Under the pieces are notes generated by a model. The model had not been told where the DNA came from and ran no database searches. It saw nothing but the letters and a program-made list of their open reading frames with translations. A DNA stretch of 46,931 bases. Source: an uncultured Myxococcales bacterium. GTDB lineage: Bacteria > Myxococcota_A > UBA9160 > SZUA-336. The translations under genes and the position numbers were made by a program. The stretch covers positions 1-46,931 of the forward strand of contig CAZMKX010000001.1 of assembly GCA_964566375.1 (NCBI GenBank), written 5' to 3'. Below, in pieces: positions 8,714 through 46,931 of this stretch (its first letter is position 1; every line of letters starts with the position of its first letter).

Positions 8714-10208
8714 CGTCGTCCTCCGTCGGCTTCTTGGCGGGCTTCGCTGGCTCCACCTTCTGCTGCGTTCGCGCATCGCTCGTGAGCGTCAGGCCACGCT
8801 CATCGACCTCGCGCTTGAACTCTTCGATCTCGTCGAGCTTCTCGCGCCAGTCGTAGCCCTCGCGGCGAAGCGCGTTCGGGTAGCTGTCGATCCCAGCCTG
8901 GATCGCCTCGACCATCGCCGGGATCTCTTTCGCTGGATCGAGCAGACCGAAACGAGGCGGTGTATAGACCGCTGGCGTCCGCGGATTCACGGAACCGTCG
9001 AGCACGCCGAGCGCACCGACGAACGCTTCCCAGATCGGCCGGCAGAGCTGCGGCACCGTGAGCTGCCACTGGTCGGCCTCGACCATCCCGCGGAACTGCA
9101 CCAGGCCGCCGCGGTGACTCGTGTACGTCACCTGCGACAGATCTCCGGTCAGCAGCTCGTAAGGAACACCGAGACCCGCCGCAACCGCGTGAAGCTGCAC
9201 GCTGTTGAACGGCGAGTAATCGCTCGAGGGTCGCGGATCTGCGACCGTCACCGACTCGCCCGGCTTCAGGTATCCGACCATGCCCGGGCGCCACGACTCC
9301 TCGCGCGAGCCGTCCGTGCCCTGCGCCGTCGGGCCGATCGTCGCGCCGGGAAGTCCCTGCGGCGTCGTCACCCACGCGGCGAGACACGCCGCGATCTTCT
9401 TGCGCATCACCTCGGCGTCGTCGTAGTCGTCGAGCGCGCGAAGCCGGAGCATCACCGGCGCGAAGTCGGTCACACCGCGGCGCTGCCCAGCGCGCAGCGG
9501 CTTGAAGTAGTGGATCACCTCAGACGCAGGCACCCGCCGGCTCGCGTAGCCGCGCCGGATGCTCGCGACGATCGAGCTGTCGCCCGGGTGCGAGTCGAAC
9601 AGCCAGTAGGCGACCGGGCGCTCGCCCTGGTACTCGATCCCCTGCCGGATCTCGTGGTCCTCGCTGATCGCTTCGTTCCGGCTGCTGTCGATGAAGTCCG
9701 GCTCGAGCAGCTGCAGCCGAAGCGGCACGTCCCCATCGAACGCGGGGGCCGTCGCATAGAGCCTGACGAGCGACTCGCCGGCCTCGCTGCGCGTGCGCTC
9801 CGCGAGGCTCTGCATCCCGTAGAGATCGTGACACCGAGACACGTCGCAGACGTCGGCCCAGCGCTTCCACGAGTCGTCGATCCGTCGATTGATCCGCCGG
9901 TTCGGGCCCGCCGCCTGACACAGGATCCCCGTGCCGATCTTGTTCGAGACGATCACCGCGAGGCCCTTCGCGGCGTGCGGGTTGTTCCGCACCAGGTCTC
10001 GGGCGCGATCGCGCAGCAGTTCCTGATCGGCCGAGATCTCGGCGTCTGCCGACGTCGCGCCCGTCGACCAGCCATCCGTGCGGCGACCGCGGCGCGCGCC
10101 CTCGTAGGCGAGCATCGCCTGCATCACCGCGCGCGCCTGCGCGCGCTGCGCGCCTCGCACGGGAGAGAGCCAGCCGATCGTGCGATCGAGCCAGTTCAGG
10201 TCAGCCAC
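8697..10208 (-). CDS. Portal protein, lambda (gpB) family
   Basis: 503 aa with a GTG start. LNWLDRTIGWLSPVRGAQRAQARAV...YEGARRGRRTDGW...LRDRARDLVRNNPHAAKGLAVIVSNKIGTGI matches the lambda-family portal N-terminal pattern. Confidence 0.9.
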   Translation of the reverse strand: MADLNWLDRTIGWLSPVRGAQRAQARAVMQAMLAYEGARRGRRTDGWSTGATSADAEISADQELLRDRARDLVRNNPHAAKGLAVIVSNKIGTGILCQAAGPNRRINRRIDDSWKRWADVCDVSRCHDLYGMQSLAERTRSEAGESLVRLYATAPAFDGDVPLRLQLLEPDFIDSSRNEAISEDHEIRQGIEYQGERPVAYWLFDSHPGDSSIVASIRRGYASRRVPASEVIHYFKPLRAGQRRGVTDFAPVMLRLRALDDYDDAEVMRKKIAACLAAWVTTPQGLPGATIGPTAQGTDGSREESWRPGMVGYLKPGESVTVADPRPSSDYSPFNSVQLHAVAAGLGVPYELLTGDLSQVTYTSHRGGLVQFRGMVEADQWQLTVPQLCRPIWEAFVGALGVLDGSVNPRTPAVYTPPRFGLLDPAKEIPAMVEAIQAGIDSYPNALRREGYDWREKLDEIEEFKREVDERGLTLTSDARTQQKVEPAKPAKKPTEDDDAEAA

Positions 10209-11001: not shown

Positions 11002-12978
11002 CTACCTCCCGAGCCATCCGCGCGTATCCCCGATCCAACCGCCGGAATCTTCGCGGCGTATGCGCGCGGCGGGAGCGACCGGAACGGGCGTTTCAGAAAC
11101 CGCTTGGCGCGGCGGCTCGTAGACCGGCCGCATCGGCAGCTTCGCGACCTCGACCTCTAGATCAAATCCCATCGCCCTAAGACCACACAGAGCCGCGTAG
11201 GCGTAGACCGCGCAGTCGAGCGGCTCGTTACGCGCGCCCGCCGCCTTCAGCTTCCACGTCCGCACGGGGAATCCCTTGCGGTTCGTCGTCATCTCGACCT
11301 TCTCGGAGACGAGCCCCGCCAGGAAGCGGTGATCGACCGAGTTCGGCAGATGCACGTAGCCAGGCCCCGGCTTCGCGATCGCAAGCCGCCCGTAGAGCTG
11401 TTCCTTCGCCGGATCCACCCGCAGAGGCCAGAGCGGGACCTTCGTAGTAACCCTGCTCGCCTGACGCGGCCACACGTCGCCGGAGCCAGCAAAGCCCTTA
11501 ACAGCGAACACGAACACTTGTCCGCCGTCCGGCGTCAGCCGCCGGAAGCGAGAGCCGCAAAAATCGTAGGCCGCCGCCGTGTGGTGGCCGCCCGTGTCGA
11601 TGCACGCTCCGCGGATGAAGTCGAAACCGCCGATCGCTCTCGGCCACGGCGCCAGCAGGTACTCGTCGAGTGCAGCCCACGTCGCGAGCGTCGAAGGATC
11701 CCCGTGGATCACCCGATGCTCGAGAAGCCACGACTCCTCGCAGGCGCCCCAGCCGTAGACCGAAACCTCGAGCCGCGCCGGCGCATCCTGCACGTCGACG
11801 CCCGCAGAGATCAGCGCCACCGGCGCCGGCACCTCGGGGCGCCCGCCGACTTCGATCAGCTGCTCGCGGCGCGACAGCAGGCCCGTTTCGTCGAGCGACT
11901 CGAACTGCTCCGACCACCACTCGGCCAAGACCGTGTTCTTGAACGCCTTCAACTGCTCGGGATTACCCTGCGCCTCGAGCCATTGCTGCGCCATCGGCGC
12001 GAGCTTGCGACCCAGCACAGCCATCGCCGGCAGCCGGAATCCGCGCCAGCCCGGCTTCGCCGCCTCGCGCGTCGGCCGGTACTCGCCGTCGCGTATCGCG
12101 CGCCACCGCTTCGCGTCGTCCCAGGTGACACCACAGCGCTCGCAGACATAGAGCGCCGTCTCTGGCCGGTGCCGACCTTCGGCATCCTTCTCCCACTGCA
12201 CCTGATCCCAGCGCAGATGCTGCGACGCCCCGCAGTCCGGGCAGGCGACGAAAAACTCGCTCTGGTCCGTCTGCTCCCAGAGGCCCCACGAGCGTCCGCC
12301 CTTCAAACCGGGCGAGGTGACCGCCGCCTCGCGCGCGTTCCAGAACGCCGACGTGCGCGCACGCGCGAGCGTGATCGGGTCTCCTTCCGTCCCAGCGCTC
12401 GGCGCGTAGCGGTCCACCTCGTCGAACAGCAGCACGCGGATCGGTCTCATCGCGAGCCCCGCGGCCGAGTTCGACCCGACGAGCGTGATGTGCCCGCCCG
12501 GGAACTCCTTGTGCCGAATCGTGTTCCCTGAATCTCGCGAGCGCGCTTCTGCGATCTTCCCCGCGAGCGCCGGAGTACCGCGCACCATCGGTGCGAGCCG
12601 GTCCTTCGACAGCCCCTCGGCCATCTCCACGTTCGGCTCGACCACCAAGATCGGGCTCGGCTCGTGGTCGATGTAGTAGCCCGCGGCGTTCAGCAAAATC
12701 TCTGTCTTGCCGCCACCCTGCGAGCATGCGATGTAGACCACGCCGGCCACCGCCGGATCCGTGATCGCATCGAGCACCTGCCGCTGGTACGGCCTGCTTC
12801 GCCAGCGCCCCGGCTCCGGGCTCGTGCCCACCGGAATCTGACGCCGCTCCTCGGCCCAGGCATTCCCGGTCAGCGGGCTAGGCGGTCGCAGCGTCCCTAG
12901 CGCGAGAATCGTCGCCCGATGCAGCCGCTCGTTCGGTGCGTAGAGGAGCGATCCATCGAGCTTCGGCGAGCTCCGCAA
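11002..12978 (-). CDS. Terminase large subunit, lambda GpA family
   Basis: ...RPPSPLTGNAWAEERRQIP...GRWRSRPYQRQVLDAI...VVYIACSQGGGKTEILLN (Walker A-like)...LLFDEVDRY..., then a zinc-ribbon CPDCG...CERCG as in GpA. Start is uncertain: TTG 12978 was chosen; alternatives run up to ATG 13065 but overlap TerS heavily. Confidence 0.9.
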   Translation of the reverse strand: MRSSPKLDGSLLYAPNERLHRATILALGTLRPPSPLTGNAWAEERRQIPVGTSPEPGRWRSRPYQRQVLDAITDPAVAGVVYIACSQGGGKTEILLNAAGYYIDHEPSPILVVEPNVEMAEGLSKDRLAPMVRGTPALAGKIAEARSRDSGNTIRHKEFPGGHITLVGSNSAAGLAMRPIRVLLFDEVDRYAPSAGTEGDPITLARARTSAFWNAREAAVTSPGLKGGRSWGLWEQTDQSEFFVACPDCGASQHLRWDQVQWEKDAEGRHRPETALYVCERCGVTWDDAKRWRAIRDGEYRPTREAAKPGWRGFRLPAMAVLGRKLAPMAQQWLEAQGNPEQLKAFKNTVLAEWWSEQFESLDETGLLSRREQLIEVGGRPEVPAPVALISAGVDVQDAPARLEVSVYGWGACEESWLLEHRVIHGDPSTLATWAALDEYLLAPWPRAIGGFDFIRGACIDTGGHHTAAAYDFCGSRFRRLTPDGGQVFVFAVKGFAGSGDVWPRQASRVTTKVPLWPLRVDPAKEQLYGRLAIAKPGPGYVHLPNSVDHRFLAGLVSEKVEMTTNRKGFPVRTWKLKAAGARNEPLDCAVYAYAALCGLRAMGFDLEVEVAKLPMRPVYEPPRQAVSETPVPVAPAARIRREDSGGWIGDTRGWLGR

Positions 12979-16774: not shown

Positions 16775-16788
16775 GACATGCAGCGGCG

Positions 16789-16860
16789 TCGGGGCGGCGG
16801 GAATCGAACCCGCATCTGCTGCCCCCAAAGCAGCGGCTCGAGCCCTTGAGCTACGCCCCG
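16789..16860 (-). tRNA. tRNA-Pro(UGG): tRNA-Pro (anticodon UGG)
   Basis: Hand-folded cloverleaf. Acceptor CGGGGCG/CGCCCCG, D arm GCTC-AAGGGCTC-GAGC, anticodon arm GCTGC-TTTGGGG-GCAGC (U33, UGG, G37), 4-nt variable loop, T arm GCGGG-TTCGATT-CCCGC, discriminator A, no encoded CCA. Confidence 0.85.
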
Positions 16861-25048: not shown

Positions 25049-25825
25049 ATGTCCGAGATGGTTCCCGCGAAGAAGGCGACGATGAGCGTGGTCGACGTGC
25101 TCCAGTCGCCGCAGATGCTCGCGCAGATCAAGATGGCGCTGCCGAAGCACATCACGGCCGAGCGGCTCGCGCGCATCGCGCTGACCCAGCTGCGGCAGAC
25201 GCCGAAGCTGCTCGAATGCACGCGCGAGTCGCTGCTCGGCGCGATCATGCAGTGCGCGCAGCTCGGGCTCGAGCCCGGCACGCTCGGCCAGTGCTGGCTG
25301 ATCCCCTACGGCAAGGAAGCGACGTTCATCCTCGGCTACCGCGGGATGGCGCAGCTCGCGTGGCGCTCGTCGCAGATCGCGTCCATCGCGGCGCGTGCGG
25401 TGTTCGAGGGCGATGTGTTCGCCTACGACTTCGGCACCGACGAGATCAAGCACCAGCCCGGCGGGACCACCGACCCGGCGAAGCTGACGCACGTCTACGC
25501 GATCGTGCGCACGTCGAATGGCGGGCGGCTCTGGGACGTGATGACGCGCGCGGAGGTCGAGGCGATCCGCAAGCGCTCGCGGGCGGGCGAGAGCGGGCCG
25601 TGGAAGACGGACTACGCCGAGATGGCAAAGAAGACCGTCATGCGGCGGCTCTTCAAGATCGCGCCGCTCTCCGCGGAGCTTCAGACCGCGATGGCGCTCG
25701 ACGACGCGGCGGACCAAGGGATCTCGCAGGGGCTCGACTTCGACCTGCCGGAGCCGGAGGTCAAGGACGTCACCCCGAAGACGAACGGAGCCGCCGATCC
25801 GGCGGCGCAGCAGGAGGCATCGTGA
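25049..25825 (+). CDS. recT: RecT-family single-strand annealing protein
   Basis: ATG 25049 with a GAGGAGA SD. ...LLGAIMQCAQLGLEPG...QCWLIPYGKEATFILGYRGMAQLAWRS... and PWKTDYAEMAKKTVMRRLFK are RecT hallmarks. Confidence 0.9.
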   Translation: MSEMVPAKKATMSVVDVLQSPQMLAQIKMALPKHITAERLARIALTQLRQTPKLLECTRESLLGAIMQCAQLGLEPGTLGQCWLIPYGKEATFILGYRGMAQLAWRSSQIASIAARAVFEGDVFAYDFGTDEIKHQPGGTTDPAKLTHVYAIVRTSNGGRLWDVMTRAEVEAIRKRSRAGESGPWKTDYAEMAKKTVMRRLFKIAPLSAELQTAMALDDAADQGISQGLDFDLPEPEVKDVTPKTNGAADPAAQQEAS

Positions 25826-26880
25826 GCGAGGCCCTTCGATACGAGATCGAGAACGTCGGCGGCATCGAGCGCGCCGACCTGATCCTCAAGCCCGGCGTCA
25901 GCGTGCTGCGCGGCCGCAATGGCGCCGGGAAGACGTCGGCATTCCGTGCGATCTCGCGCGCGCAGGGCGCCGACATCGAGCTGGAGCGCCGGGATGGCGC
26001 GCAGTTCGGCGAGGTGCGCGGCCCGGGGGTGACGCTCCGCGTCGGCAAGGTGGTGCGCGCCACCGGCCACGCCGAGCTGTCGCTGGCCGACGTCTCGCCG
26101 CTTTCGACGCTGATCGACCCGCAGATCAAGGACTCGGACGCCGCGGCACGCGCGCGCCTGCGCGCCCTGGTCGAGCTGCTCGGGCTCGCGGTCGACGACG
26201 ACGCTGTGGCGCTGCTGTGCGGTGGCGATGCGGCGGTCGCGAAGTGGGTCGCTGACGAGGTGCGCGCCGAGGCGATCGACGACCTGATGGTCGCCTCCGA
26301 GAAGGCGCGCGGCCGCATGCACGCGCTGGCCCGCGAGAGCGAGCAGGCGATCGAAGGGGCGAAGGCGCGGCGCGAGGCGGCGAGCGGGCGCATGGCGTCG
26401 ATCCTCGCGGAGATCGGCGGCGCGCAGGCGCTCGTCGACACGCCGATCGAGGTCGCGCGCGCAGCCGTCTCGGAGGGTGGGCGCGAGTACGAGCGGGCCG
26501 TCGCGCAGCACGACGCCCGCACCCAGCTGGAGGAACGACAGGCGGCGCTCCGCGCGTCGATCGGCCCGCGTCCGGACGACGCGCCGCACCTGGAGCTGGC
26601 ACACGCCCTCCAGCGCGAGGTGGTCGGCGCAGACCTTCGGGTCGACGACCTGGAGAGGCGGATCCGCAAGCTCCAGGCAGAGCTGGGCATCGCGCGCGAG
26701 CTGCGCGCCGCGAAGGCTGCCGAGCGCAGCGCGGCGCTCGACGCGGCGGCCGAGGCGCTCGATCAAGGCGACGAGATCGAGCCCGGAAGGCGCGTGCATG
26801 CCGGCATCGAATTCCGCTTCGAGATGGATGGCGTCTGGCCGGTGCTGAAGACCGTGATGCCTGCGAAGGGGGGAGCATGA
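25822..26880 (+). CDS. SMC/RecN/Rad50-head-like P-loop ATPase (N-terminal half only) with coiled coil
   Basis: GTGA-coupled start. IENVGGIERADLILKPGVSVLRGRNGAGKTSAFRAI (Walker A) followed by a long Ala/Glu/Arg coiled coil. I could not find a signature (LSGG) motif or a Walker B motif. Confidence 0.6.
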   Translation: MSEALRYEIENVGGIERADLILKPGVSVLRGRNGAGKTSAFRAISRAQGADIELERRDGAQFGEVRGPGVTLRVGKVVRATGHAELSLADVSPLSTLIDPQIKDSDAAARARLRALVELLGLAVDDDAVALLCGGDAAVAKWVADEVRAEAIDDLMVASEKARGRMHALARESEQAIEGAKARREAASGRMASILAEIGGAQALVDTPIEVARAAVSEGGREYERAVAQHDARTQLEERQAALRASIGPRPDDAPHLELAHALQREVVGADLRVDDLERRIRKLQAELGIARELRAAKAAERSAALDAAAEALDQGDEIEPGRRVHAGIEFRFEMDGVWPVLKTVMPAKGGA

Positions 26881-30946: not shown

Positions 30947-32181
30947 CGGCTGCGGCCCTCCACTCTTCCCGGGCCGCCCCTGTCCGTGGTATCGACTGGT
31001 CCGTGAGCGAGGACTTCGGGCACGTCCGCCAGCGCCGCGACGGCCGCTGGTACGTCGACTGCGGCAGGTTCGGCCGCGTCTACAGCAGCAAGGGCGCGAA
31101 ATTCGAGCGGCGCCGCGACGCCGAGCACGTCCTCAACGCCATCCGCTCGGTAATCGCGGAGGGCAAGCCCAAGGCTCAGGCCGTCGACGCCTGGATGCCG
31201 ACCACATCGGCCGCGCACCGGGTGGACGTGTGGCTGGCGCGCTGGCTGAAGCGCATGAGCGAGCTCCAGGCGGCCGGCGAGCGCAGCAAGGAGTACGTCG
31301 ACGAGCTGCGCCGCTGGTGCGCGAAGGGAGGGAAGCACGCGCACCTCGCCGGCTACTGGGGCCGGCGCAGCGTGCTCGAGATCGACTACGCGGGACTCGA
31401 GGAGTGGTGCGCGTGGCTCGAGCAGCGCGGGCTCTCGGCGAAGACGCGGCACAACGTCGTCTCCGCGATGAGCGCCTTCCTCGGCTGGCTGCGAAAGCTT
31501 GAGGAGATACCCCGCGTGCCGGTGATCCCGTGGCCGAAGGTCGCCGAGCACGCGCCGCGGATCCTCGCGCCAGCGGCGCAGGCTCGAGTGCTCGAGCAGA
31601 TCCCCGTCGGCGCCCGCGGAATCTTCATGGCGCTCGCGCTGCTCGGCCTGCGCCCGAGCGAGGCGCAGCGGCTCCGCGCGCAGGACTACTCGCCCGGCGA
31701 GCCCGGCTGGCTGACCGTGACCCGCACGAAGAACGGCCAGGTGAAGCGGCTGCCGGTGCCGAGCGATCTGGCCGACTGGATCGCCGAGCACGTCGAGCTC
31801 GACCCGCTGAAGGGGGCAGCGCCGCTGTTCTCGATCCCGTACTTCGGCAGAGGCATCCGATCGACCCGCGGCTGGAATCCGACGAGCCTGCGGATGACGT
31901 GGGCGAAGGCGTGCCGCGCGGCAGGCGTGCGCGCATCGCTCTACGAAGGGACGAAGCACAGCCGCGCGACCGACCTGCTGCGCCAGGGCGTTCCCGAGCG
32001 CGTGCTGCAAGCGATCCTGGGCCACAAGGATCCGCGATCGACCCGCCGGTACGCGCGGCTCGCCGATCAGGCCGTGGTGGAGGCTTTGTGGCTCCGACGT
32101 GACTCCGGCTCTGGCGTGGCTCCGGAGGCTCCGAAGGCAGCGTCGCAAGTGCGCGTAATCAAACGAGGTACGGAAAAGTGA
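30943..32181 (+). CDS. int: Tyrosine integrase
   Basis: GTGA-coupled start, 412 aa. SAM-like N-domain (...SAKTRHNVVSAMSAFLGWL...). Catalytic-domain motifs: ALLGLRPSEAQRL (Arg), KHSRATDLL (His-x-x-Arg), ILGHKDPRSTRRYARL (His...Tyr). Confidence 0.9.
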   Translation: MTAAALHSSRAAPVRGIDWSVSEDFGHVRQRRDGRWYVDCGRFGRVYSSKGAKFERRRDAEHVLNAIRSVIAEGKPKAQAVDAWMPTTSAAHRVDVWLARWLKRMSELQAAGERSKEYVDELRRWCAKGGKHAHLAGYWGRRSVLEIDYAGLEEWCAWLEQRGLSAKTRHNVVSAMSAFLGWLRKLEEIPRVPVIPWPKVAEHAPRILAPAAQARVLEQIPVGARGIFMALALLGLRPSEAQRLRAQDYSPGEPGWLTVTRTKNGQVKRLPVPSDLADWIAEHVELDPLKGAAPLFSIPYFGRGIRSTRGWNPTSLRMTWAKACRAAGVRASLYEGTKHSRATDLLRQGVPERVLQAILGHKDPRSTRRYARLADQAVVEALWLRRDSGSGVAPEAPKAASQVRVIKRGTEK

Positions 32182-32394: not shown

Positions 32395-32805
32395 ATGGGC
32401 GCAGCCCTGAGCCTTCTCGTCTCGCTCACCTCGATCGACTGCGGAAAGTGCGGCGGCGTCTACGCGATCAGCGAACGCTACCGCGCGCACGCGCAGGAGC
32501 ATGGGCTCACCTGGAACTGCCCGTACTGCCAGATCCCTTGGGGCTTCGTGAAGAGCGAGGCCGCCAAGCTCCGCGAGCAGCTCGCCCAGGCCGACGCTGC
32601 GATCGCGAAGCAGCGCGCCGAGCTCGAGCGCGAGCGCAGCCGCATCGCGATGGAACGGAACAGCAATCGAGTCCTGCGCGGCCACTTGACCCGCCACAAG
32701 AAGCGCGCCGCCGCAGGCGTCTGCCCGTGCTGTCAGCGCACGTTCGAGAACGTCGCGCGCCACATGAAGACGAAACACCCTCACTACGCGAAGGAGCCCG
32801 CATGA
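32395..32805 (+). CDS. Zinc-finger/coiled-coil hypothetical protein (136 aa)
   Basis: ATG 32395 with an AAAGGA SD. CGKCGG...CPYC, a coiled coil, then a C2H2-like CPCCQRTFENVARHMKTKH. Confidence 0.6.
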   Translation: MGAALSLLVSLTSIDCGKCGGVYAISERYRAHAQEHGLTWNCPYCQIPWGFVKSEAAKLREQLAQADAAIAKQRAELERERSRIAMERNSNRVLRGHLTRHKKRAAAGVCPCCQRTFENVARHMKTKHPHYAKEPA

Positions 32806-33134: not shown

Positions 33135-33205
33135 TCCTCGGTCGTCCAACGGCAGGACAGCCGGCCTTGACCCGGCGAATGGTGGTTCGAGTCCATCCCT
33201 AGGAA
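33135..33205 (+). tRNA. tRNA-Gln(UUG)-like gene with atypical C33 and one acceptor-stem mismatch
   Basis: Hand fold. Acceptor TCCTCGG/CCTAGGA (one C-U mismatch), D arm GTCC-AACGGCA-GGAC, anticodon arm GCCGG-CCTTGAC-CCGGC, variable loop GAAT, T arm GGTGG-TTCGAGT-CCATC (one G-U pair), discriminator A. Begins right after the stop codon at 33134. Confidence 0.5.
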
Positions 33206-33207
33206 CG

Positions 33208-33849
33208 CTAGCCCCTCGCCTCCGCGATGATCGCCCGCAGCTGCGAGGCCGCCTCGGCCTTGTCGTCGTTCACGATCGCGTAGTCGAAGTCGGCACTTGA
33301 GGCTATCTGCCGACGCGCGATCTCGAGCCGCCGCGCGATCTCGACCGTCTCCATGCTGCCGCGCGCCTGCATCCGCTCGGCCAGCACCCAGAAGGCCGGC
33401 GGGTGGATGAAGATCAGGCGAGCGTCTGGCCGCAGCGCGCGGATCGCGAGCGCGCCGTTGTCTTCCATCTCGCAGAGGATGTCGAGGTCGTCGCGGAAGA
33501 ACTCGGCCTTGGAGGCGCCGTAGAGCTGGCCGGCGTAGGTCGCCGTCTCGACGAACTCGCCCGCCAAGTCGAGCTGGTGGAACTTCTCGCGTGAGACGAA
33601 GTGGTAGGCGACGCCATCGGCCTCGAGCTCGCGCCGAATCCGCGTCGTATGCGAGACGAGCGTGCGCAGCTTCGGGTCGCCTTCACAGAGCAGCCGGCAC
33701 AGCGTCGACTTGCCGACGCCGCTCGGGCCGATCAGCACGAACGGGATGCCTGCGCGCTGCGCGAGGTGCGGCATGCTCCACGTCGCCGCGTCGTAGGCTG
33801 CGCGGGCCTGCGCCTTGCGGGCGGCGTCGGTCACGTCAGCGGTCACCAC
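33208..33849 (-). CDS. gmk: Guanylate kinase homologue
   Basis: FVLIGPSGVGKSTL (P-loop), VSHTTRIRRELEADGVAYHFVSREKF, GEFVETATYAGQLYGAS, and C-terminal DYAIVNDDKAEAASQLRAIIAEAR closely parallel bacterial Gmk motifs. GTG start overlaps the upstream TGA. Confidence 0.8.
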   Translation of the reverse strand: MVTADVTDAARKAQARAAYDAATWSMPHLAQRAGIPFVLIGPSGVGKSTLCRLLCEGDPKLRTLVSHTTRIRRELEADGVAYHFVSREKFHQLDLAGEFVETATYAGQLYGASKAEFFRDDLDILCEMEDNGALAIRALRPDARLIFIHPPAFWVLAERMQARGSMETVEIARRLEIARRQIASSADFDYAIVNDDKAEAASQLRAIIAEARG

Positions 33850-34259
33850 GACTCCGAGTCCGCGCGCCCGCCGCCGTCTTCCATCTTGGCGCTGATCTCG
33901 CCGAGCATCGCGTAGAACTCCGGCCCGTGGTGCGGCATCTCCTCGCGCTCTAGACGTTGCTCCCAGCGCGCAGAGGCGGGCCAGAGGGCGCAATGCCCGT
34001 GCTCGTGATAGAGCAGGTCCACCGCCCACGAGAACGGCGCGCGCGAGTCGATCCTGACGACGAGGTGATCGTCGGCGCGGTACGTCTCGGCCACCGATTG
34101 CAGCGTCGGGGAGAGACGCTCGAAGCGCAGGCGCACCGGGAACGGCGTCGGCCAGTGTGCGGCGAGATAGCGCGCGATCTGACGAAGCCGGCGCTTGCCA
34201 TCGTTGTCCAGCGGTCGCCAGAAGCGCGGCGCGTCGGTGTCGAGGTGGTCGGGTCTCAC
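33843..34259 (-). CDS. SprT-like zinc metalloprotease domain protein
   Basis: 138 aa with a GTGA-coupled start. LLYHEHGHCALW (HExxH) followed by HHGPEFYAMLGEI, the HExxH...HGPEF...M..I spacing recalled from SprT/Spartan-type proteases. Confidence 0.6.
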   Translation of the reverse strand: MRPDHLDTDAPRFWRPLDNDGKRRLRQIARYLAAHWPTPFPVRLRFERLSPTLQSVAETYRADDHLVVRIDSRAPFSWAVDLLYHEHGHCALWPASARWEQRLEREEMPHHGPEFYAMLGEISAKMEDGGGRADSESW

Positions 34260-35356
34260 GCCGCGCGCCGCCGCACACGCTGCGGCCGCCGTTCCTTCGG
34301 GTCGCAGAGGAAGACCTGGTGGTCGGCGATCACGCCCTGGTCGCGGTCGTAGAACTGGAGCCGCTGCGAAGGCCAGCCGCAGGCCTTCATCTGCTCCTGC
34401 GCGTAGACGTTCCCGCTCTCCGGCGATGCGGTCGCGTAGAACGTGCGGTAGTTCAGCACCGCCGAGGCGTGCTGGTGGAAGTGCCCGAAGTAGAGGTTGT
34501 CCCACTCCTCGGGGATGGAGTCGATCCAGCCCCACGCGGACTTCGCGGTGCCGTACCACGGGAAGCCGGCGAACCCGCCGCGGATCTGGTCTCCGTGCAC
34601 GAGCAGCGCGCCCCAGTCGTAGGCGTAGGCGATCGCGTAGAAGCTCGGCGAGATGTTGAACGTGAGCCGGTCCGCGAGCTCGCGGCGCGGGTTCTCGTCG
34701 GTGCCGAGCAGGATGTTCCGCGTCGTCTGGTAGGCGACGCGATCCCAGTTCGTGTGCGGGTGCGCGCCCATCGACTTGAGGCCTGGCCGGCCGTGGTTCC
34801 CGCACACGCTCTCGACGCGAACCCGCTTGAAGGTCGCGAGCAGCGAGAGGATCAGGCGGACGAAGACCGCGGGCGCCGTCTTGCATGCCTGCTCGAAGAG
34901 GCCCTGGTCGATCTGGAACGCCTGCGAGGGGAAGATGTTCTCGCCCTCGACCATGTCGCCGCCGAGGAGCAGGATGCACTCGTCGATCGAGGCCGCGCTG
35001 CGCCGGATCTCGGTGATGTGCGCGGCCTTGCGCGCGAGCATCGAGAGGCGCGTCTCGGCGACGGCCGACGAGTAGGTCTCGGTCAGCTTCCCGATCTGCG
35101 TGTCGGTGACGTGGAGCAGCGCGATCTCCTGGCGGCGCTTGCGCTCTAGCTTCGGTGCCGGCGGCACGCTGAGATCGGGGCGCTCCTCCCACGCCTGCTG
35201 CACCGCCTGGAGGATGATCTCCTCGCCGCCGCGAGCTGCGTCGAGCCGACGCTTGAGCACGTCGTTCTCGCGGCGCAGCGCGCGGATCTCGACGGGCTCT
35301 GCGACGGGCGGCGAGTAGACCTCCGTCGGCGGCGCCGGCCTATCCCTTCGCTTCAT
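34256..35356 (-). CDS. Calcineurin-like metallophosphoesterase (Mre11/SbcD-like motif set) with N-terminal coiled coil
   Basis: ATG 35356. LLHVTDTQIG, LLLGGDMVEG, SVCGNHG, LLVHGD, FGHFH are the five phosphoesterase motifs in order. The N-terminal 57 aa of track ORF 34256..35527 are not credible. Confidence 0.75.
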   Translation of the reverse strand: MKRRDRPAPPTEVYSPPVAEPVEIRALRRENDVLKRRLDAARGGEEIILQAVQQAWEERPDLSVPPAPKLERKRRQEIALLHVTDTQIGKLTETYSSAVAETRLSMLARKAAHITEIRRSAASIDECILLLGGDMVEGENIFPSQAFQIDQGLFEQACKTAPAVFVRLILSLLATFKRVRVESVCGNHGRPGLKSMGAHPHTNWDRVAYQTTRNILLGTDENPRRELADRLTFNISPSFYAIAYAYDWGALLVHGDQIRGGFAGFPWYGTAKSAWGWIDSIPEEWDNLYFGHFHQHASAVLNYRTFYATASPESGNVYAQEQMKACGWPSQRLQFYDRDQGVIADHQVFLCDPKERRPQRVRRRAA

Positions 35357-35636
35357 CGTCCCAGAGCTTCCAGTTGGGGTCGTGGCCGAGATTGAGGTGT
35401 CGAGCGAGCATGGAGTTGGAGATCGTTTCCCCCCACGCTTTGGCTGCGCGACGCGCGAGGGTCGCGATGGGATACTGGGGAAGCCCCTGCGCGAAGGTGT
35501 CCGCGAGACACTTCGAGATCCACGCACTGACCTCCGGCAGCTGATCGCAGAGCCGACACTTCCCGGAGACGCCGCACCGGCTCGGGTCGTAGACCTCGGT
35601 CGGGGGGGCCTTCGTCGCGGTTGCCTTCTTCGCCAT
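35340..35636 (-). CDS. Hypothetical small protein (98 aa), possible HTH
   Basis: ATG 35636 with a GAGG SD. MAKKATATKAPPTEVYDPSRCGVSGKCRLCDQ...ISNSMLARHLNLGHD... Confidence 0.5.
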   Translation of the reverse strand: MAKKATATKAPPTEVYDPSRCGVSGKCRLCDQLPEVSAWISKCLADTFAQGLPQYPIATLARRAAKAWGETISNSMLARHLNLGHDPNWKLWDDEAKG

Positions 35637-35646
35637 CGTCACCTCG

Positions 35647-36096
35647 CTACGCCGGCCACTTCGGGTCGGTCGCGTCGCTGTAGCTGCGGTACGCGCGCCA
35701 TCCGCCGACGCGGACTCCGGCCCAGCCGAGCCACGCGCGGACGGGGCCGACGTGCTTGCTGCCGCTGCGCGCGACGAGCCAGAACACATAGTCGGCGACG
35801 TCGCGAGCTACCTGCACGCGGTAACACCAATCGTGCAGGAGCCCCGCGGTCTCGAATCGTTCACGGGGACCCATCACCCACGAGAGCACCGCAAGCGAGG
35901 GGATGGACGCGCCGTCATATACGAAGCCGGCCGGCACGGTGAGGATCGTCGTCTGATCGGGCGAGAGGACCGCGAAGGCGTCGAGGCAGGCGACACGCTC
36001 GCAGAGATCGACGGATACTTCTCGCGCGAGCACGCGGCGGCCGTCGTCGTCGAACTCGACGAGCGGGCGGCCGGTCAGGAGGCGTGCAGTAGGCAT
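35647..36096 (-). CDS. DUF1353-family protein
   Basis: ATG 36096. ...TVPAGFVYDGASIPSLAV...ETAGLLHDWCYR...ARDVADYVFW... matches the DUF1353 pattern. Confidence 0.7.
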   Translation of the reverse strand: MPTARLLTGRPLVEFDDDGRRVLAREVSVDLCERVACLDAFAVLSPDQTTILTVPAGFVYDGASIPSLAVLSWVMGPRERFETAGLLHDWCYRVQVARDVADYVFWLVARSGSKHVGPVRAWLGWAGVRVGGWRAYRSYSDATDPKWPA

Positions 36097-36097
36097 C

Positions 36098-36316
36098 TCA
36101 CCACCCCCGGAGCGTGGCGTCGCCGACGAGCGAGACGGTGTAGATCGCCTGCCGATCGCGCAGGAGCGCTGCGCGCGCGCGGGATCTGGCACGCAACCGA
36201 TCGGCATTACCGCGGCAGCGATGGCAGCGGTACGGTTTCCCATTGTAGGCTGGGCGAGCCGAGTCTTCCTGCCCGCAGCCACCCGAGCACAAGCGGTGCG
36301 TAGAGCGTCGGCTCAT
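36098..36316 (-). CDS. Small zinc-ribbon-like protein (72 aa)
   Basis: ATGA overlap with the upstream stop (36313..36316), and its own stop lies 1 nt before the next ATG. CSGGC...CHRC. Confidence 0.5.
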   Translation of the reverse strand: MSRRSTHRLCSGGCGQEDSARPAYNGKPYRCHRCRGNADRLRARSRARAALLRDRQAIYTVSLVGDATLRGW

Positions 36317-37105: not shown

Positions 37106-37312
37106 TCAAGGCGCGCGTCGTCCGAGCGGCATGATCCCGCCGCCGTCGTAGGGGTATGTCGCCTCGACCGGGTAGATCACCGGCGGCGCGGCCAGCTCGG
37201 CACCAGACGCCGCGATCTGGAGCGTGCAGCGCGAGCACCCGCCGGTCGACTCGACGCGCTCGCCGCAGCGCAGGCAGCGGCCGAAGACGTCGCAGGCAGG
37301 AGCCGCGCTCAC
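37106..37312 (-). CDS. Small zinc-ribbon protein (68 aa)
   Basis: GTG start in a GTGA overlap with the upstream stop. High GC3. CDVFGRCLRCG...GGCSRC. Confidence 0.5.
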   Translation of the reverse strand: MSAAPACDVFGRCLRCGERVESTGGCSRCTLQIAASGAELAAPPVIYPVEATYPYDGGGIMPLGRRAP

Positions 37313-38319: not shown

Positions 38320-38907
38320 CTACTCCTTCGTGTGGAACTCGCGCCCGATGCGGATGGCGCGGTTTTTGAAACCCTTCTCGCACCAGAGGCCGGCCTTCAC
38401 GCGCACCGGATGGCCGAGCGCGTACTCGATGCCGTCGATCTTGTCGGGCGCGAACTTTCCGAGGCGGAACCCCTCGGACCAGGCGTCGGTTCGCATGCGC
38501 AGGATCCGATAGGCGGTCTCGACGTTCCCGTGCTCGGCCGCGTAGGCCTGCATCTTGCGGATCGTCTCGTCGCCGCTCCGGCCGTCGACCTTCGCGCCGA
38601 TGAGCCCCTGAATGAGCTTCTCGCACCAGCTCTGATAGCGGGGGTCGCTGCTGTGGATGTACCAGTCGTAGGCGGCGAGGCTCACCGGCCAGGGGAAGCC
38701 ATCGCAGCCGCCGGGGATCCAGTACCGCGCGTAGCGGATCTCGCGCGCGCCTTCGGCCGTCAGCGTCGAGAGGTCGACGTCCGGGTGCGACGCGCTCGCG
38801 ATTCCGAAGCGGGTGCGTTTCCCGAGGTCGAAGGCGTGATCCGCCCAGCCGCCCTCTTCCGATGCCGTGAAGCGGTCGGCGTGGATGAACCCGGGGCTGT
38901 AGAGCAC
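38320..38907 (-). CDS. Endolysin, GH108-type muramidase with PG_binding_3-like C-terminal part
   Basis: ...FTASEEGGWADHAFDLGKRTRFGIASASHPDVDLSTLTAEGAREIRYARYW...LIGAKVDGRSGDETIRKM... matches the GH108 (E-G-G-x...D.GG.T..GI...YW) pattern. Confidence 0.75.
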   Translation of the reverse strand: MLYSPGFIHADRFTASEEGGWADHAFDLGKRTRFGIASASHPDVDLSTLTAEGAREIRYARYWIPGGCDGFPWPVSLAAYDWYIHSSDPRYQSWCEKLIQGLIGAKVDGRSGDETIRKMQAYAAEHGNVETAYRILRMRTDAWSEGFRLGKFAPDKIDGIEYALGHPVRVKAGLWCEKGFKNRAIRIGREFHTKE

Positions 38908-44883: not shown

Positions 44884-46931
44884 CTACCTGCGCGCGCGCC
44901 GCGAGGCGAGCGCGGCCACCCGCGCGAGCTGCGCCTGCTGCCGGTCGAGACGGTCGCTGAAGCCGCGGAGCTCGATCAGCTGCGCACGGTTCCCGGCCTC
45001 GCGCTGCGCGTTGCCATCTTCGATCGCTGCCGCGAGGCTCGTGAAGTTCTGGGCCGCCTCGGCCTGCTGCGCGCGCGTCGAGATCGCGACGCGCTCACCA
45101 CCCGAGACCCGGAACAGCGGCACCACGTTGTCGCGCCCGGCACCGGGGACCGTGAAGCCGCCGCCCGTCGCGAAGCCCGGCAAGGCCTGCGTCGAGCCCG
45201 CCGGCAGCAGGTTCTCGAGCTGCCGCAGCACGAACTCGCGGCGCTGGAAGAACTGCTCCGTGCTCGCGAACACCTGCAGCGAGACCGTCAGCAGGTTCCG
45301 CGCTGCCTCGGCGATCTCGTCGAGCTGGCTGCGATCGCCGCCCTGCGCCTGCGCGACGAGGGTGCCGAAGCGCGACTCGGCCGCGGCGAGAACGTCCGTC
45401 GGCGAGAGCTGGCTCGCGAGCGTCGTCTTGAGATCCGTGAGCAGGTCCGTGATCGGCTTGTTCGCCTCGCGGGCGATCCGCTCGCGCTCGAGCTGCCCGA
45501 GGTAGGCGACGCGCGTCAGGTCCGCCTCGTAGTCAACGGCGTTACGTAGCCGCTCGGCCTGGATGCGCTCCTGCTCGCGCATGGCGAGCGCGCCCGGATC
45601 CAGCATCGCGAGGATCTGGTCCTCGATGGAGGTCGCGAAGCCTTCCTTCAGCTTCGCGATCGCCGCTGCGCGGCCTTCCTCTGCGCGCGCCATCTCGGCC
45701 GTCGTGAAGCCGAGCAGCTTCATCCGTTCGATCAAATCGTCGAAGTGGCGGTTGACGTCTCGAATCGACTTCGCCGCGTCGGAGAGCTGGTTCTCCCCGA
45801 GCACGTCGTCGAGCTCCTGAATGATGGCCGCGCGCTCCTCGAGGAATCCGAGCAGGCCGGACACGACCTCGTCGATGCTCTTCAGCTTGTCGGGGAGCGT
45901 CCCCAGGAAATCCGCGACCGCCTCGCTGTCGAACAGGCCCTCGAAGCTTGCCGCGAAGCGCGCCTTGAGCACCTTCACGATCTCGTTGTCGATGACGATC
46001 CCGCGACGGCTGAACTCGCTATCCGCGAGCGTCTCGCGAACGATCTGGCGCTGGCGTTCCGTGAGCAGTTCCGAGACGCGCTTGTCGAAGCTGACGAAGA
46101 ACTCTGTGATCGCCTCGGTCTGCTTGATCGGGATGTGCTCGCTGCCCTCGCGAGACAGACCGACGAAGCCGAACGGGCTCTCTCCACGGATGCCGTGCTG
46201 GAACTGCGTCGCGAGGTCCGCGACGCGCGTCGCCACCGAGACCGCTGCCTTCTCCGCGCCGATCAGGCTCGTGACGAGAATCGTGATCGGGTCGCCGGAG
46301 AGCGCGGCGATGCCCTGCCCCCAGCGGCGCGACGTGCTCGCGTTCTGCTGGAACTTCCCGAGCGTGTTCCCGAGGAACCCACCGAGCGCGCCGCCGATCG
46401 CACCGCCAGTGGCACCTGACCCAGCAAGCCACTGCCCGAGCACGGCGCCGAAGAGCGCGCCGACGCTACCGCCGAGCATCGTGTAGATACCGCTGCGCGA
46501 GCCAGCGAGCGGGCTGTTCACGTTGTTCGGGCGCATAGAAGACGCGATCGCGATCCCGCCGGCGATCCCAGTCAGGATCTTCGCGATGCCCTTGAGGCCG
46601 CCGATCGCCTGACCGATCTGACTCGACGTCGTCGTCGGATTCGTGTTCGGGTCGTCGTCGCCTGGGTCGAAGATCCCGCCGAGCCGCCGACCGATCCGGT
46701 CGAGGAAGCTCTGCTCGTCGGACTGGCCGCTCTGACTCTCGCCGCCGATCCCGAGCGCGCGGCCGACGAGGCCGCCGATCATGCCGCCACCCTTCTGGCC
46801 GGTGCCAGAACCGACGACGCTCGACATGAACTGTTTCGACAGCAGCTCCGCGATCGTTCGCTTGCCGAGCGTCAGCAGGTTGTTGAAGAACTTCTTCGCG
46901 CTCTTGAACCCGTCGTCGAACGCGTCGACGA
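44884..46931 (-). CDS. Tail tape measure protein, C-terminal part
   Basis: Track ORF 44884..46827 stays open upstream to the window end (...FFNNLLTLGKRTIAELLSKQFMSS...). Gly-rich and coiled-coil composition. Sits directly downstream of the G/GT chaperone once the circle is closed. Confidence 0.85.
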   Translation of the reverse strand, partial: VDAFDDGFKSAKKFFNNLLTLGKRTIAELLSKQFMSSVVGSGTGQKGGGMIGGLVGRALGIGGESQSGQSDEQSFLDRIGRRLGGIFDPGDDDPNTNPTTTSSQIGQAIGGLKGIAKILTGIAGGIAIASSMRPNNVNSPLAGSRSGIYTMLGGSVGALFGAVLGQWLAGSGATGGAIGGALGGFLGNTLGKFQQNASTSRRWGQGIAALSGDPITILVTSLIGAEKAAVSVATRVADLATQFQHGIRGESPFGFVGLSREGSEHIPIKQTEAITEFFVSFDKRVSELLTERQRQIVRETLADSEFSRRGIVIDNEIVKVLKARFAASFEGLFDSEAVADFLGTLPDKLKSIDEVVSGLLGFLEERAAIIQELDDVLGENQLSDAAKSIRDVNRHFDDLIERMKLLGFTTAEMARAEEGRAAAIAKLKEGFATSIEDQILAMLDPGALAMREQERIQAERLRNAVDYEADLTRVAYLGQLERERIAREANKPITDLLTDLKTTLASQLSPTDVLAAAESRFGTLVAQAQGGDRSQLDEIAEAARNLLTVSLQVFASTEQFFQRREFVLRQLENLLPAGSTQALPGFATGGGFTVPGAGRDNVVPLFRVSGGERVAISTRAQQAEAAQNFTSLAAAIEDGNAQREAGNRAQLIELRGFSDRLDRQQAQLARVAALASRRARR
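46877..46931. repeat. Terminal direct repeat, copy 2 (circular-assembly overlap)
   Basis: Identical to 1..55. It lies inside the tape measure reading frame, so it is an assembly overlap rather than a biological end. Confidence 0.95.

Follow-up and report, generated by a model that had tools for sequence, protein, structure and literature searches.

Mre11-Rad50/SbcCD nucleases operate together with a partner that binds DNA and are able to act on ends blocked by protein, and Spartan/Wss1 proteases likewise work on protein-blocked DNA. Phage proteins may share short terminal peptides: T4 internal proteins share a capsid targeting sequence, and T7 gp2.5 and gp4 have acidic C-terminal tails. In each case, use of a common receptor accounts for the short peptide shared by different proteins of one phage. 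Among phage-encoded phosphoesterases, gp47 of Bxb1 is predicted to have an Mre11/DP1-like structure; the phage requires it for DNA replication, and its 3' exonuclease activity is limited and weak (PMC11795197). A serine integrase also uses gp47 as its directionality factor. A10ZJ24 Gp48, also a cluster A phosphoesterase, damages host DNA as counter-defence (PMC12287305). TtaP, encoded in the typhoid toxin islet, is a DUF1353 protein experimentally shown to be a phospholipase A2 (PLA2), with residues H70/D71/D85 (PMC11525133).

The window, meaning the whole stretch of DNA analysed here, is the complete circular genome (46.9 kb) of a temperate siphovirus with a tyrosine integrase. The initial annotation described a cassette of six ORFs at the distal end of the leftward structural/lysis block (~34 kb); we found all six, tightly packed on the minus strand (Table 1), and their placement holds. 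The block converges on a tRNA-Gln gene and the integrase arm. The tRNA gene starts 1 nt past the stop of a 110-aa lipoprotein gene and ends 1 nt short of the stop of the guanylate kinase homologue (Gmk), marking the convergence point. At the other end of the cassette, the overlap of g72 with its upstream lipoprotein gene lies at 36313–36316. Gaps of 1 and 10 nt separate g72 from the DUF1353 gene and the latter from g98, and g98 overlaps the phosphoesterase gene by 17 nt. The remaining junctions are a GTGA overlap (phosphoesterase/SprT-like) and a 7 nt overlap, GTGGTGA (SprT-like/Gmk). A self-trained codon model recovered five of the six; their stops agree with the listed ones and so, g98 excepted, do their starts. 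For g98 it chose GTG at 35642, two codons upstream of the listed start. Five of the cassette genes are solid; the 72-codon ORF is doubtful.

Table 1. Features of the cassette and the adjoining tRNA gene (window coordinates)
Feature	Coordinates	Strand	Evidence or remarks
tRNA-Gln(UUG)	33135..33206	+	ARAGORN; Rfam RF00005 47.2 bits, E 4.8e-9
Guanylate kinase homologue (Gmk), 213 aa, 33-aa N-terminal extension	33208..33849	-	PF00625 5e-32
SprT-like mini-zincin, 138 aa	33843..34259	-	Iterative search; HEHGH (residues 85-89) and HHGPEF with the third His, H111
Calcineurin-fold metallophosphoesterase, 366 aa	34256..35356	-	phrog_284 'exonuclease' 7e-34
N-terminal tag of phosphoesterase, APPTEVYSP, residues 8-16	35309..35335	-	
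g98, small Cys/His helix-turn-helix protein	35340..35636	-	Profile match and conserved position
N-terminal tag of g98, APPTEVYDP, residues 10-18	35583..35609	-	
DUF1353 protein, 149 aa	35647..36096	-	PF07087 E=1e-14; phrog_1158 1.2e-14
g72, 72-codon ORF with CxxC...CxxC	36098..36316	-	ATGA overlap with upstream lipoprotein gene

We interpret the cassette as a mosaic that contains a conserved three-gene core with a matched peptide tag (probability about 0.85). Eighty-eight related loci were compared, 86 by iterative searches, with the later-fetched L087 and L088 added in a single-pass search. The six genes had been read as a single module, which the comparison does not bear out: three have no relatives near the phosphoesterase in the 88 loci. 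No relative of the DUF1353 protein, Gmk or the 72-aa product occurs within ~6–8 kb of the phosphoesterase in the 86 iteratively searched loci, nor near it in the single-pass search that includes L087 and L088, and these three look like independent additions. PADLOC defence models match no cassette protein. The genes that do recur together are those for the g98-type partner, the phosphoesterase and, in a subset, the SprT-like protease. Of 55 dereplicated locus groups, 13 have the SprT-like gene immediately downstream of the phosphoesterase (36–70% phosphoesterase identity), including 9 of the 14 groups at ≥47% identity; in all loci except two it begins inside the phosphoesterase gene or just past its end. 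It is not essential to the module, since about three quarters of the groups are without it. Elsewhere the phosphoesterase neighbours genes for DNA polymerase, helicase, primase, Rad52/ERF annealing, endonuclease VII and nucleotide metabolism. In the window phage and one distant clade the pair is located after the endolysin, a position that a late-expressed or virion-delivered protein would fit as well.

The phosphoesterase has a presumably disordered N-terminal tag, a long helix (residues 22–57 of the AF2 model, pLDDT 83) and a DP1/Mre11-like catalytic domain. Its sequence alone gives no match in Pfam, and it has at least 1446 homologous clusters. As the initial annotation reported, the five calcineurin motifs are present, in invariant or nearly invariant columns (D85 with Q87, D134, N187-H188, H254, H292/H294). 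The label 'Mre11/SbcD-like' is no more than approximate: in Foldseek searches of the PDB the best match for the catalytic domain is archaeal PolD DP1, a 3'-5' proofreading exonuclease (1.5e-9), followed by GpdQ (4.6e-8) and Mre11 (1.6e-7). Matches in BFVD are phage proteins annotated as DP1-like (TM 0.6–0.73), those annotated as SbcD being far poorer (TM ~0.4). Structural matches to GpdQ, Rv0805, the Ap4A hydrolase SapH and LpxH nearly equal those to DP1 and Mre11. Motif I reads D-x-Q in place of D-x-H in >90% of the family and motif III reads GNHG in place of GNH[DE], so the chemistry may differ. The family occurs almost exclusively on phage contigs; 185,579 species genomes yielded only four matches.

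Set against the described systems, the phosphoesterase shares with the cluster A proteins a phage-encoded single-domain calcineurin fold and the Mre11/DP1-like predicted structure. The cluster A proteins, however, are ~255 aa and have neither the N-terminal tag nor the long helix; tblastn and hhalign detect no sequence relationship, and neither a tag-sharing helix-turn-helix partner nor a SprT-like neighbour has been described for them. The serine integrase served by Bxb1 gp47 also contrasts with the tyrosine integrase here. As for PolD DP1, the label 'DNA polymerase II small subunit' is attached to many of the phage relatives, but the TM-score to DP1 is just 0.45–0.47, motif I is D-x-Q, the DP2 polymerase partner is absent and the model shows no OB-fold domain. 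With Mre11-Rad50/SbcCD the phosphoesterase has the fold and five-motif active site in common, but not a linked Rad50/SbcC gene. An SMC-like gene (25822–26880) lies 7 kb from the phosphoesterase in a separate operon; no comparable gene is near the phosphoesterase in other loci.

In nearly all related loci the end of a small protein gene meets the phosphoesterase start, and 54–57 of these upstream partners group into a single profile family, which has no entry in Pfam or PHROGs. Partner profiles built from related loci without the window ranked g98 first among 722 six-frame window ORFs (E 0.001–0.011), in an alignment spanning the CxxC, helix-turn-helix and RH motifs. Its AF2 model is all-alpha (pLDDT 70), with weak, non-significant Foldseek matches to winged-helix proteins (E>0.6). 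These modest E-values, together with position, identify g98 as the putative conserved upstream partner of the phosphoesterase. The initial annotation had overlooked it in this role.

The peptide shared by the two proteins, by contrast, had been noticed, and it is real: APPTEVY occupies residues 10–16 of g98 and 8–14 of the phosphoesterase. The tags agree at 8 of 9 residues, three of the identical residues being encoded by different codons, and the 15-nt core agrees at 14 of 15 bases. Of 5000 shuffles, one produced a 7-mer in common. Allowing up to two mismatches, the 15-mer has four matches in the window against 0.41 expected, two of which are the exact g98 and phosphoesterase copies; the genome holds no third copy of the tag. 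Both AF2 models place it in a low-confidence, presumably disordered tail. What had been missed is that the family in general shows such sharing. Partner and phosphoesterase from the same locus are significantly similar in their tags at 14 of 65 loci (p≤0.01; 23 at p≤0.05), with lineage-specific peptides such as MSLRDEI, DIDAILAA, DFDVxQWA, DTPxxxDFLA, EPLLxP and DVRxWAK. The two copies often use different codons for residues that are identical (five of eight in L043). In many lineages, partner and phosphoesterase of one phage share an N-terminal peptide whose sequence varies by lineage, and the shared tag is maintained at the protein level, by selection on the peptide. The T4 and T7 terminal peptides differ from this arrangement, which has exactly two carriers, encoded side by side, and a tag that changes between lineages.

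By itself, the SprT-like protein of the window matches no family model, and the SprT/Spartan-type call stands at the family level only. Iterative searching ties it to 100–125-aa proteins directly downstream of the phosphoesterase elsewhere; 10 of 12 family members match PF10263 (best 1.7e-9), and the family profile matches the Spartan SprT domain 6mdx at 1.6e-4. H85, E86, H89 and H111 are invariant. Like SprT, Spartan and Wss1 (PF10263), the family has HExxH and a third His in H-G-x-E-F/W, but it is minimal: at 100–138 aa it has no recognisable regulatory domain or DNA-binding domain like those of Spartan/Wss1.

The other three genes fall outside this core. g72 has a negative per-codon coding score (-0.10) and a GC3 of 0.77, against 0.82–0.95 in neighbouring genes. 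Pfam, PHROGs and NCBIfam contain no family that matches it, and a search of 1.84 billion representative proteins gave only short segments of long repetitive proteins. It is a doubtful gene or an orphan, outside the conserved module. The DUF1353 assignment was confirmed (Table 1), and this family is now a phospholipase-A2-class domain. The window protein shares the Pfam domain with TtaP and has an H-D pair followed by a downstream Asp (H88-D89 and D99/D102), but its similarity to TtaP is low and its PLA2 class is predicted. RefSeq gives the phage homologues the label 'tail assembly chaperone'. The gene is an independent accessory gene beside the lysis region. Gmk, too, is an independent accessory gene and a clear guanylate kinase homologue: it just reaches the TIGR03263 cut-off (160.8 bits; cut-off 160.45), matches its best solved Gmk structure at 8.6e-33 and keeps the P-loop and TTRxxRxxE residues. 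It had been called a close homologue, which does not hold because the nearest copies in phage records are only 35–40% identical. Its start codon is ambiguous: choosing the ATG at codon 26 would abolish the overlap with the SprT-like gene, although the 25-codon extension ahead of that ATG scores as coding.

Several other explanations were weighed. If the main hypothesis of the initial annotation is narrowed to the conserved pair, phosphoesterase and protease could jointly remove covalent protein-DNA adducts (trapped topoisomerases, recombinases or defence proteins), the protease trimming the protein before the Mre11-like nuclease takes off the remnant. The conserved adjacency of the two genes, the PF10263 and Spartan matches and the Mre11/DP1-like fold suit such a division of labour. 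We nevertheless consider it unlikely: in about three quarters of the groups the phosphoesterase and its small partner occur without the protease, the mini-zincin has no recognisable Spartan/Wss1-like DNA-binding domain, the pair is not joined by an SbcC/Rad50 gene elsewhere, and DUF1353 and Gmk stand outside the module. Somewhat less probable again is a counter-defence nuclease that, as A10ZJ24 Gp48, cuts host DNA early and so silences defence genes. That phage metallophosphoesterase disrupts the genomic DNA of the host and is required when the host is defended (PMC12287305), and the nearly phage-only distribution of our family would suit a cell-toxic protein. But hhalign finds no detectable relationship to the cluster A phosphoesterases (probability 0.3%), the tblastn matches include no mycobacteriophage, and the genes lie at the end of the late block here, not among early genes.

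A nucleotide-directed counter-defence, in which the phosphoesterase would hydrolyse cyclic or linear nucleotide signals or nucleotides and, with Gmk, shield or rewire guanine-nucleotide pools against host defences, is improbable. Its appeal lies in the significant structural matches to the glycerophosphodiesterase GpdQ, the cAMP phosphodiesterase Rv0805 and SapH, and in a MazG-like dGTP_diPhyd_N gene in three related contexts, either 1–2 kb upstream of the phosphoesterase or directly after the SprT-like gene, which is Gmk's place here; IMPDH-like, adenylosuccinate-lyase-like, dUTPase and dCMP deaminase genes are other neighbours. Yet the constant partner is a helix-turn-helix protein rather than a nucleotide enzyme, Gmk is unlinked to the phosphoesterase in other loci, the MazG-like gene occurs in just 3 of 56 groups, the top fold matches are DNA exonucleases, and neither PurZ nor other base-modification genes were detected in the window. 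Chance packing of six unrelated morons, with the shared peptide a recent functionless local duplication, would explain why three genes are unlinked elsewhere and why the 15-mer copies are nearly identical. It is very improbable, and for the core three genes already contradicted: the g98/phosphoesterase/SprT order recurs in distant lineages, as does tag sharing with other peptides and synonymous differences between copies.

The preferred reading of the core (33843–35636), g98 and the phosphoesterase plus the SprT-like protease in a subset of phages, is a phage DNA-processing nuclease with two or three subunits. We give even odds to the specific model that the phosphoesterase is a DNA nuclease recruited by its tag-matched DNA-binding partner g98. 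The tag would be a docking peptide, both carriers fitting one common receptor groove, most simply on the partner itself; DNA-bound g98 would then recruit the phosphoesterase through it. The SprT-like protease may join as a third, optional subunit and remove or process protein at those DNA sites. Outside the core, the DUF1353 gene (PLA2 class), Gmk and the doubtful 72-codon ORF are separate accessory genes that happen to share its transcription unit, which follows the lysis genes. The core is a widespread, unstudied phage module of a small, predicted DNA-binding protein, an Mre11/PolD-DP1-like phosphoesterase and a SprT-like protease; its phosphoesterase, as a metal-dependent DNA exonuclease or end-processing nuclease, may serve to replicate or recombine phage DNA or to attack the DNA of the host.

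The six ORFs and their overlaps are present as the initial annotation described them. It put them at the far end of the late operon, beside the integration arm, and as to position this is correct, because a leftward and a rightward gene block converge on a tRNA-Gln gene (see the feature table). The window, which is an entire NCBI contig, has a G+C content of ~69% and carries an exact 55-nt direct repeat at its ends (1-55 and 46877-46931). The contig is thus a circular assembly of ~46.9 kb, and the tape measure region crosses the circular junction. The tRNA-Gln gene is squeezed, with 0-1 nt spacing, between the stops of a 110-aa lipoprotein gene (33134) and Gmk (33208). Within the cassette, a consensus scan detected neither a promoter nor a terminator.

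Features of the window, with strand where noted
Feature	Coordinates	Place and description
Leftward block	from ~20.9 kb over the contig ends to 33208	structural and lysis genes and the six ORFs
tRNA-Pro (UGG)	16788-16860 (-)	second tRNA; within leftward block, upstream of terminase region
Large terminase	11002-12831	leftward block
Portal	8697-10208	leftward block
Protease-capsid fusion	6665-8713	leftward block
Tape measure	3-1766 and 44884-46827	leftward block
Tail-tip genes		leftward block
GH108-type endolysin	38320-38907	leftward block
Several small membrane proteins and lipoproteins		leftward block
68-aa zinc-finger/ribbon-like protein	37106-37312 (-)	lysis region; CxxC...CxxC; no family assigned
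g72 (72-codon ORF)	36098-36316 (-)	six ORFs
DUF1353	35647-36096 (-)	six ORFs
g98 (small Cys/His helix-turn-helix protein)	35340-35636 (-)	six ORFs
Phosphoesterase	34256-35356 (-)	six ORFs
SprT-like protease	33843-34259 (-)	six ORFs
Gmk	33208-33849 (-)	six ORFs
tRNA-Gln(UUG)	33135-33206	full-length, well supported; convergence point of both blocks, ~1 kb from integrase
Rightward block	21.0-33.1 kb	HTH regulators, RecE-/RecT-like genes, SMC-like ATPase, HNH protein, tyrosine integrase
352-aa SMC-like protein	25822-26880 (+)	right after RecE-/RecT-like genes; SMC/Rad50-type N-terminal ATPase head, then coiled coil
Tyrosine integrase	31003-32181	rightward block; two small genes follow
136-aa zinc-finger/ribbon-like protein	32395-32805 (+)	after integrase; coiled coil and C2H2-like C-terminus; no family assigned

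Only part of this cassette is conserved. Coding statistics are good in five of the six ORFs; the exception, g72, has a coding score of -0.10 per codon and a GC3 of 0.77, and no credible homologue was found among 1.84 billion representative proteins. For comparison we drew on 88 related loci, taken from GenBank phages, IMG/VR and public assemblies. Iterative searches with each window protein found relatives of DUF1353, Gmk or g72 in none of 86 loci, and a single-pass search that included two later-added loci again found none. These three genes therefore lie outside any conserved unit, and the proposal that all six form one unit fails. The phosphoesterase and SprT-like genes do co-occur elsewhere: of 55 evaluable dereplicated locus groups, 13 have the SprT-like gene downstream, and among the 14 groups that share at least 47% identity with the window, 9 have it. 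The earlier interpretation is thus partly right, in that its phosphoesterase-protease link is real. The cassette DNA had no match in 50,697 phage records. Among PADLOC defence-system models, the sole match to the six proteins was a marginal one at the Gmk P-loop (E 0.009).

The DUF1353 ORF matches PF07087 (1e-14; cut-off 22.5 bits), so its label stands, and its reading shifts to the phospholipase-A2 class of which DUF1353 is the founding domain (TtaP; PMC11525133). TtaP has catalytic residues H70/D71/D85 (PMC11525133); the window protein has H88-D89 and D99/D102, a correspondence read by eye rather than aligned. The gene adjoins lysis genes. In RefSeq and PHROGs, phage DUF1353 proteins are called ‘tail assembly chaperone’, although TtaP, the one member to have been characterised, is a phospholipase A2. 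The chaperone name may derive from gene position and have spread without evidence.

Gmk matches PF00625 (5e-32) and passes the TIGR03263 equivalog cut-off by 0.3 bit (160.8 bits; cut-off 160.45). Aligned to 7u5f, it keeps the GPSGVGKST P-loop and the TTR..R..E GMP-binding residues. It had been called a close guanylate kinase homologue; it is a clear homologue, but the nearest copies in phage records are only 35-40% identical. Phage guanylate kinases were already known (phrog_1815; copies in Liberibacter, Bacillus and Lactococcus phage records). A Z-genome or other base modification, with Gmk acting alongside PurZ, was considered and rejected: the 352-aa gene after RecT encodes an SMC-like ATPase instead of PurZ, and the window ORFs searched yielded neither PurZ nor any other gene for base modification. 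Gmk is an unlinked accessory gene.

What remains is a conserved module of two or three genes that carries a matched N-terminal tag and whose function we infer below. Its central protein, the phosphoesterase, belongs to phrog_284, ‘exonuclease’ (7e-34). The family comprises at least 1446 homologous clusters at 90% identity, nearly all from phage-size metagenomic contigs. The protein carries the five motifs that define the calcineurin superfamily (DxH, GD, GNH[DE], H, GHxH), and all five are invariant or nearly so across 32 homologues, with D85, D134, N187-H188, H254, H292 and H294 invariant. Motif I deviates to D-x-Q (Q87 in >90%) and motif III to GNHG. One homologue has a precomputed PF00149 match.

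In the AlphaFold model of the phosphoesterase (AF2 pLDDT 83), a tail of low confidence (1-20) is followed by one long helix (22-57) and then by the catalytic domain, which is compact. The fold is an alpha/beta sandwich with 120 PDB matches at E<=0.001, the best 50 of which are all calcineurin-fold. PolD DP1 proofreading exonuclease ranks first (1.5e-9), followed by GpdQ, Mre11, the Ap4A hydrolase SapH, 5'-nucleotidases, LpxH and Rv0805. Among predicted viral structures, uncharacterised Caudovirales proteins match best, together with phage proteins that bear the name ‘DNA polymerase II small subunit’ or ‘calcineurin-like phosphoesterase’ (TM 0.6-0.73); phage proteins annotated SbcD reach only TM ~0.4. 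Single-sequence PDB searches with the phosphoesterase and the SprT-like protein gave chance matches only, and the phosphoesterase HMM profile found nothing significant in the PDB (DP1 E 0.32; Mre11 not found).

The phosphoesterase had been called Mre11/SbcD-like. The calcineurin fold and the five motifs are there, but the name is only approximate: DP1 outranks Mre11 in the PDB search. Mre11/SbcD also works with a Rad50/SbcC ATPase, whereas no Rad50/SbcC-like family occurs among the recurrent neighbours in 56 locus groups. The SMC-like gene was considered as a Rad50 partner and rejected, since it lies in another operon of the window and is unlinked to the phosphoesterase in other loci. Its product matches AAA_23 (8.6e-6), an archaeal SMC-related protein (6.6e-9) and, weakly, PtuA/LmuB/AriA, and is too short for a full Rad50. 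PolD DP1 differs as well: it has an OB-fold domain and a DP2 partner, whereas our model consists of the N-terminal helix and phosphoesterase domain only, and searches of the window's larger ORFs found no DP2-like or other DNA polymerase gene.

Nearly every locus has an ORF of 75-110 aa ending at the phosphoesterase start. Between 54 and 57 of these upstream partners form one profile family with CxxC, a helix, a helix-turn-helix and RHxxxC/H; neither Pfam nor PHROGs has a model for this family. When profiles were made from the partners of the closest phosphoesterases, leaving the window out, g98 came first of 722 six-frame window ORFs (E 0.001-0.011), and the alignment covers the whole domain. 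These narrower profiles were needed because with the broad 54-member profile g98 came only second among window ORFs (E 0.074). By eye, the partner in L087, whose phosphoesterase is the closest relative (70% identity), has the same pattern. The g98 model is all-alpha (pLDDT 70); a fold search matched winged-helix/HTH domains without significance. One clade, loci L033-L041 (IMG/VR), has an unrelated small acidic protein ending DDDE or DDE in place of the Cys/His partner. It likewise overlaps the phosphoesterase start, and the SprT-like gene is kept in L037, L038 and L041.

The PPTEVY peptide noted initially on g98 and the phosphoesterase is a genuine match. APPTEVY(D/S)P occupies residues 10-18 of g98 and 8-16 of the phosphoesterase, and a common 7-mer arose in 1 of 5000 shuffles. 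When partner and phosphoesterase were compared in every locus, we again found same-locus sharing of an N-terminal peptide, with a sequence that differs by lineage (see the peptide table). The shuffle test gave p<=0.01 in 14 of 65 loci (0.65 expected) and p<=0.05 in 23 of 65 (3.25 expected), counts in which the loci are not all independent.

N-terminal peptides of the upstream partner and the phosphoesterase in the same locus
Locus	Partner	Phosphoesterase
L043, L075	MSLRDEI	MSLRDEI
L081	DIDAILAA	DIDAILAA
L013	EDFDVEQWAKEQ	DDFDVQQWASAQ
L061	DTPDLEDFLA	DTPSVDDFLA
L022-24	DVRKWAK	DVRDWAK
L087	LEPLLAPP	REPLLVPE
L071	SDLTEFKTI	ADLSEFEGI

Identical tag residues often use different codons (window, 3 of 8; L043, 5 of 8; L081, 4 of 8), so selection acts on the peptide and not on a DNA repeat. 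These synonymous differences rule out a DNA or RNA repeat or gene conversion. In the eight loci for which it was measured, the distance between the two copies is 226-283 nt. No third copy was found in the window or related loci; a site with two mismatches (8715-8729) was rejected, being out of frame with ATG 8776 and upstream of the start at 8713. Tag sharing is independent of the SprT-like gene. Since it is equal in loci without the protease, cleavage of the tag by that enzyme is not favoured.

In the 13 groups that have it, the gene downstream of the phosphoesterase, whose stop is usually overlapped, encodes a 100-125-aa protein with HEWAH...H(G/D)xxW. Iterative search links the window's 138-aa protein to this family; a word-indexed search with it found one relative only. 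Residues H85, E86, H89 and H111 are invariant. Of 12 family members, 10 match PF10263 (SprT-like; best 1.7e-9), and a profile of the family hits the SprT domain of Spartan (6mdx, 1.6e-4). The window copy alone matches no model, so its membership comes through the family, and at that level the HExxH, third histidine and Pfam match uphold the SprT-like call.

Named phages with relatives of the phosphoesterase are Streptomyces phage Dagobah, Actinomycetia phage DSL-LC01, haloarchaeal tailed viruses, Caulobacter phage Cd1, Brevundimonas phages and cyanophage S-CBS1. Some contigs with the family are of jumbo size (106-183 kb; L010, L013, L026, L030). A search for prophage relatives in 185,579 species-representative bacterial and archaeal genomes gave just four weak matches, and the family seems almost confined to free or lytic phage genomes. 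This near-absence holds despite the integrase in the window phage. Elsewhere the phosphoesterase lies mostly among DNA replication, recombination or nucleotide metabolism genes. One distant clade has the pair behind genes for tape measure, tail and endolysin, which is also its place in the window.

Of the phosphoesterases of cluster A mycobacteriophages, Bxb1 gp47 is linked to phage DNA replication and has weak 3' exonuclease activity (PMC11795197), and A10ZJ24 Gp48 damages host DNA (PMC12287305). Homology to them was not detected (hhalign probability 0.3%), and Mycobacterium phages are absent among tblastn matches of the phosphoesterase in 50,697 phage records. By these sequence comparisons they are functional precedents, not detectable relatives. 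In Bxb1 (L093; NC_002656, 6876-7788), RefSeq names gp46 ‘recombination directionality factor’ and gp47 ‘metallo-phosphoesterase’, whereas in the literature the directionality factor is the phosphoesterase-like gp47. Neighbouring product names there also look shifted or odd (‘phosphofructokinase’, ‘sigma-K factor’).

From its fold, PHROG class, gene neighbourhoods and phage precedents, we favour a DNA exonuclease or end-processing enzyme as the role of the phosphoesterase. The most economical reading of a peptide that is identical on two co-inherited proteins and drifts between lineages is that it would bind a receptor co-evolving within the same phage. The receptor would most simply be a groove on the partner itself. 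The DNA-bound small protein would recruit the nuclease via the tag, and the SprT-like protease would be an optional extra component that acts on protein at the same DNA sites.

Other roles would fit parts of the evidence. The initial annotation suggested processing of protein-DNA adducts, and the phosphoesterase-protease pair may act in crosslink repair. Spartan and Wss1 carry out DNA-dependent proteolysis of DNA-bound proteins, whereas the SprT-like protein here has 138 aa and no visible DNA-binding domain. Early host-DNA degradation may also be the role; host-DNA damage is among the activities of the phage precedents. The phosphoesterase may instead hydrolyse nucleotides or second messengers, as also raised initially. 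A hint in this direction is a MazG-like dATP/dGTP diphosphohydrolase gene (PF18909; dGTP_diPhyd_N) in three related contexts: L001 (7399-7728), L087 (7195-7512) and L004 (4389-4937). It lies directly after the SprT-like gene, in the slot of Gmk here, or 1-2 kb upstream of the phosphoesterase. Guanine nucleotides are substrates of both the MazG-like enzyme and Gmk.

The tag itself invites comparison with the capsid targeting sequence of T4, an N-terminal peptide on several packaged proteins that is cleaved by the prohead protease; those proteins are found in virions. By analogy, the matched tag could be a targeting signal that brings both proteins, DNA binder and nuclease, into one compartment or complex. 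We consider this unlikely. In the window genome, a shared N-terminal peptide is present on two carriers only. A possible site is the procapsid, in which case both proteins may be injected with the DNA and act before phage gene expression.

The cassette reading is corrected, with DUF1353 moved to the phospholipase-A2 class and Gmk set apart from the module. The phosphoesterase family is large and almost phage-only, and PHROG's ‘exonuclease’ is its sole existing name. New here is that the enzyme is almost always accompanied by a small helix-turn-helix protein lacking annotation, and often by a SprT-like protease, and that an N-terminal peptide co-varies between enzyme and small partner. Among phage phosphoesterases of the DP1/Mre11 fold, this module is widespread and uncharacterised, with the matched tag as its unusual feature. 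It gives a common phage function a concrete architecture that can be tested, and the tag is a handle for finding the module's binding target. If the pair were indeed targeted to the procapsid, it would represent a new and widespread kind of two-component nuclease that is packaged in advance. In more general terms, matched tags of this sort would then be a means, not described before, by which phages keep a nuclease and its DNA-binding adaptor paired.
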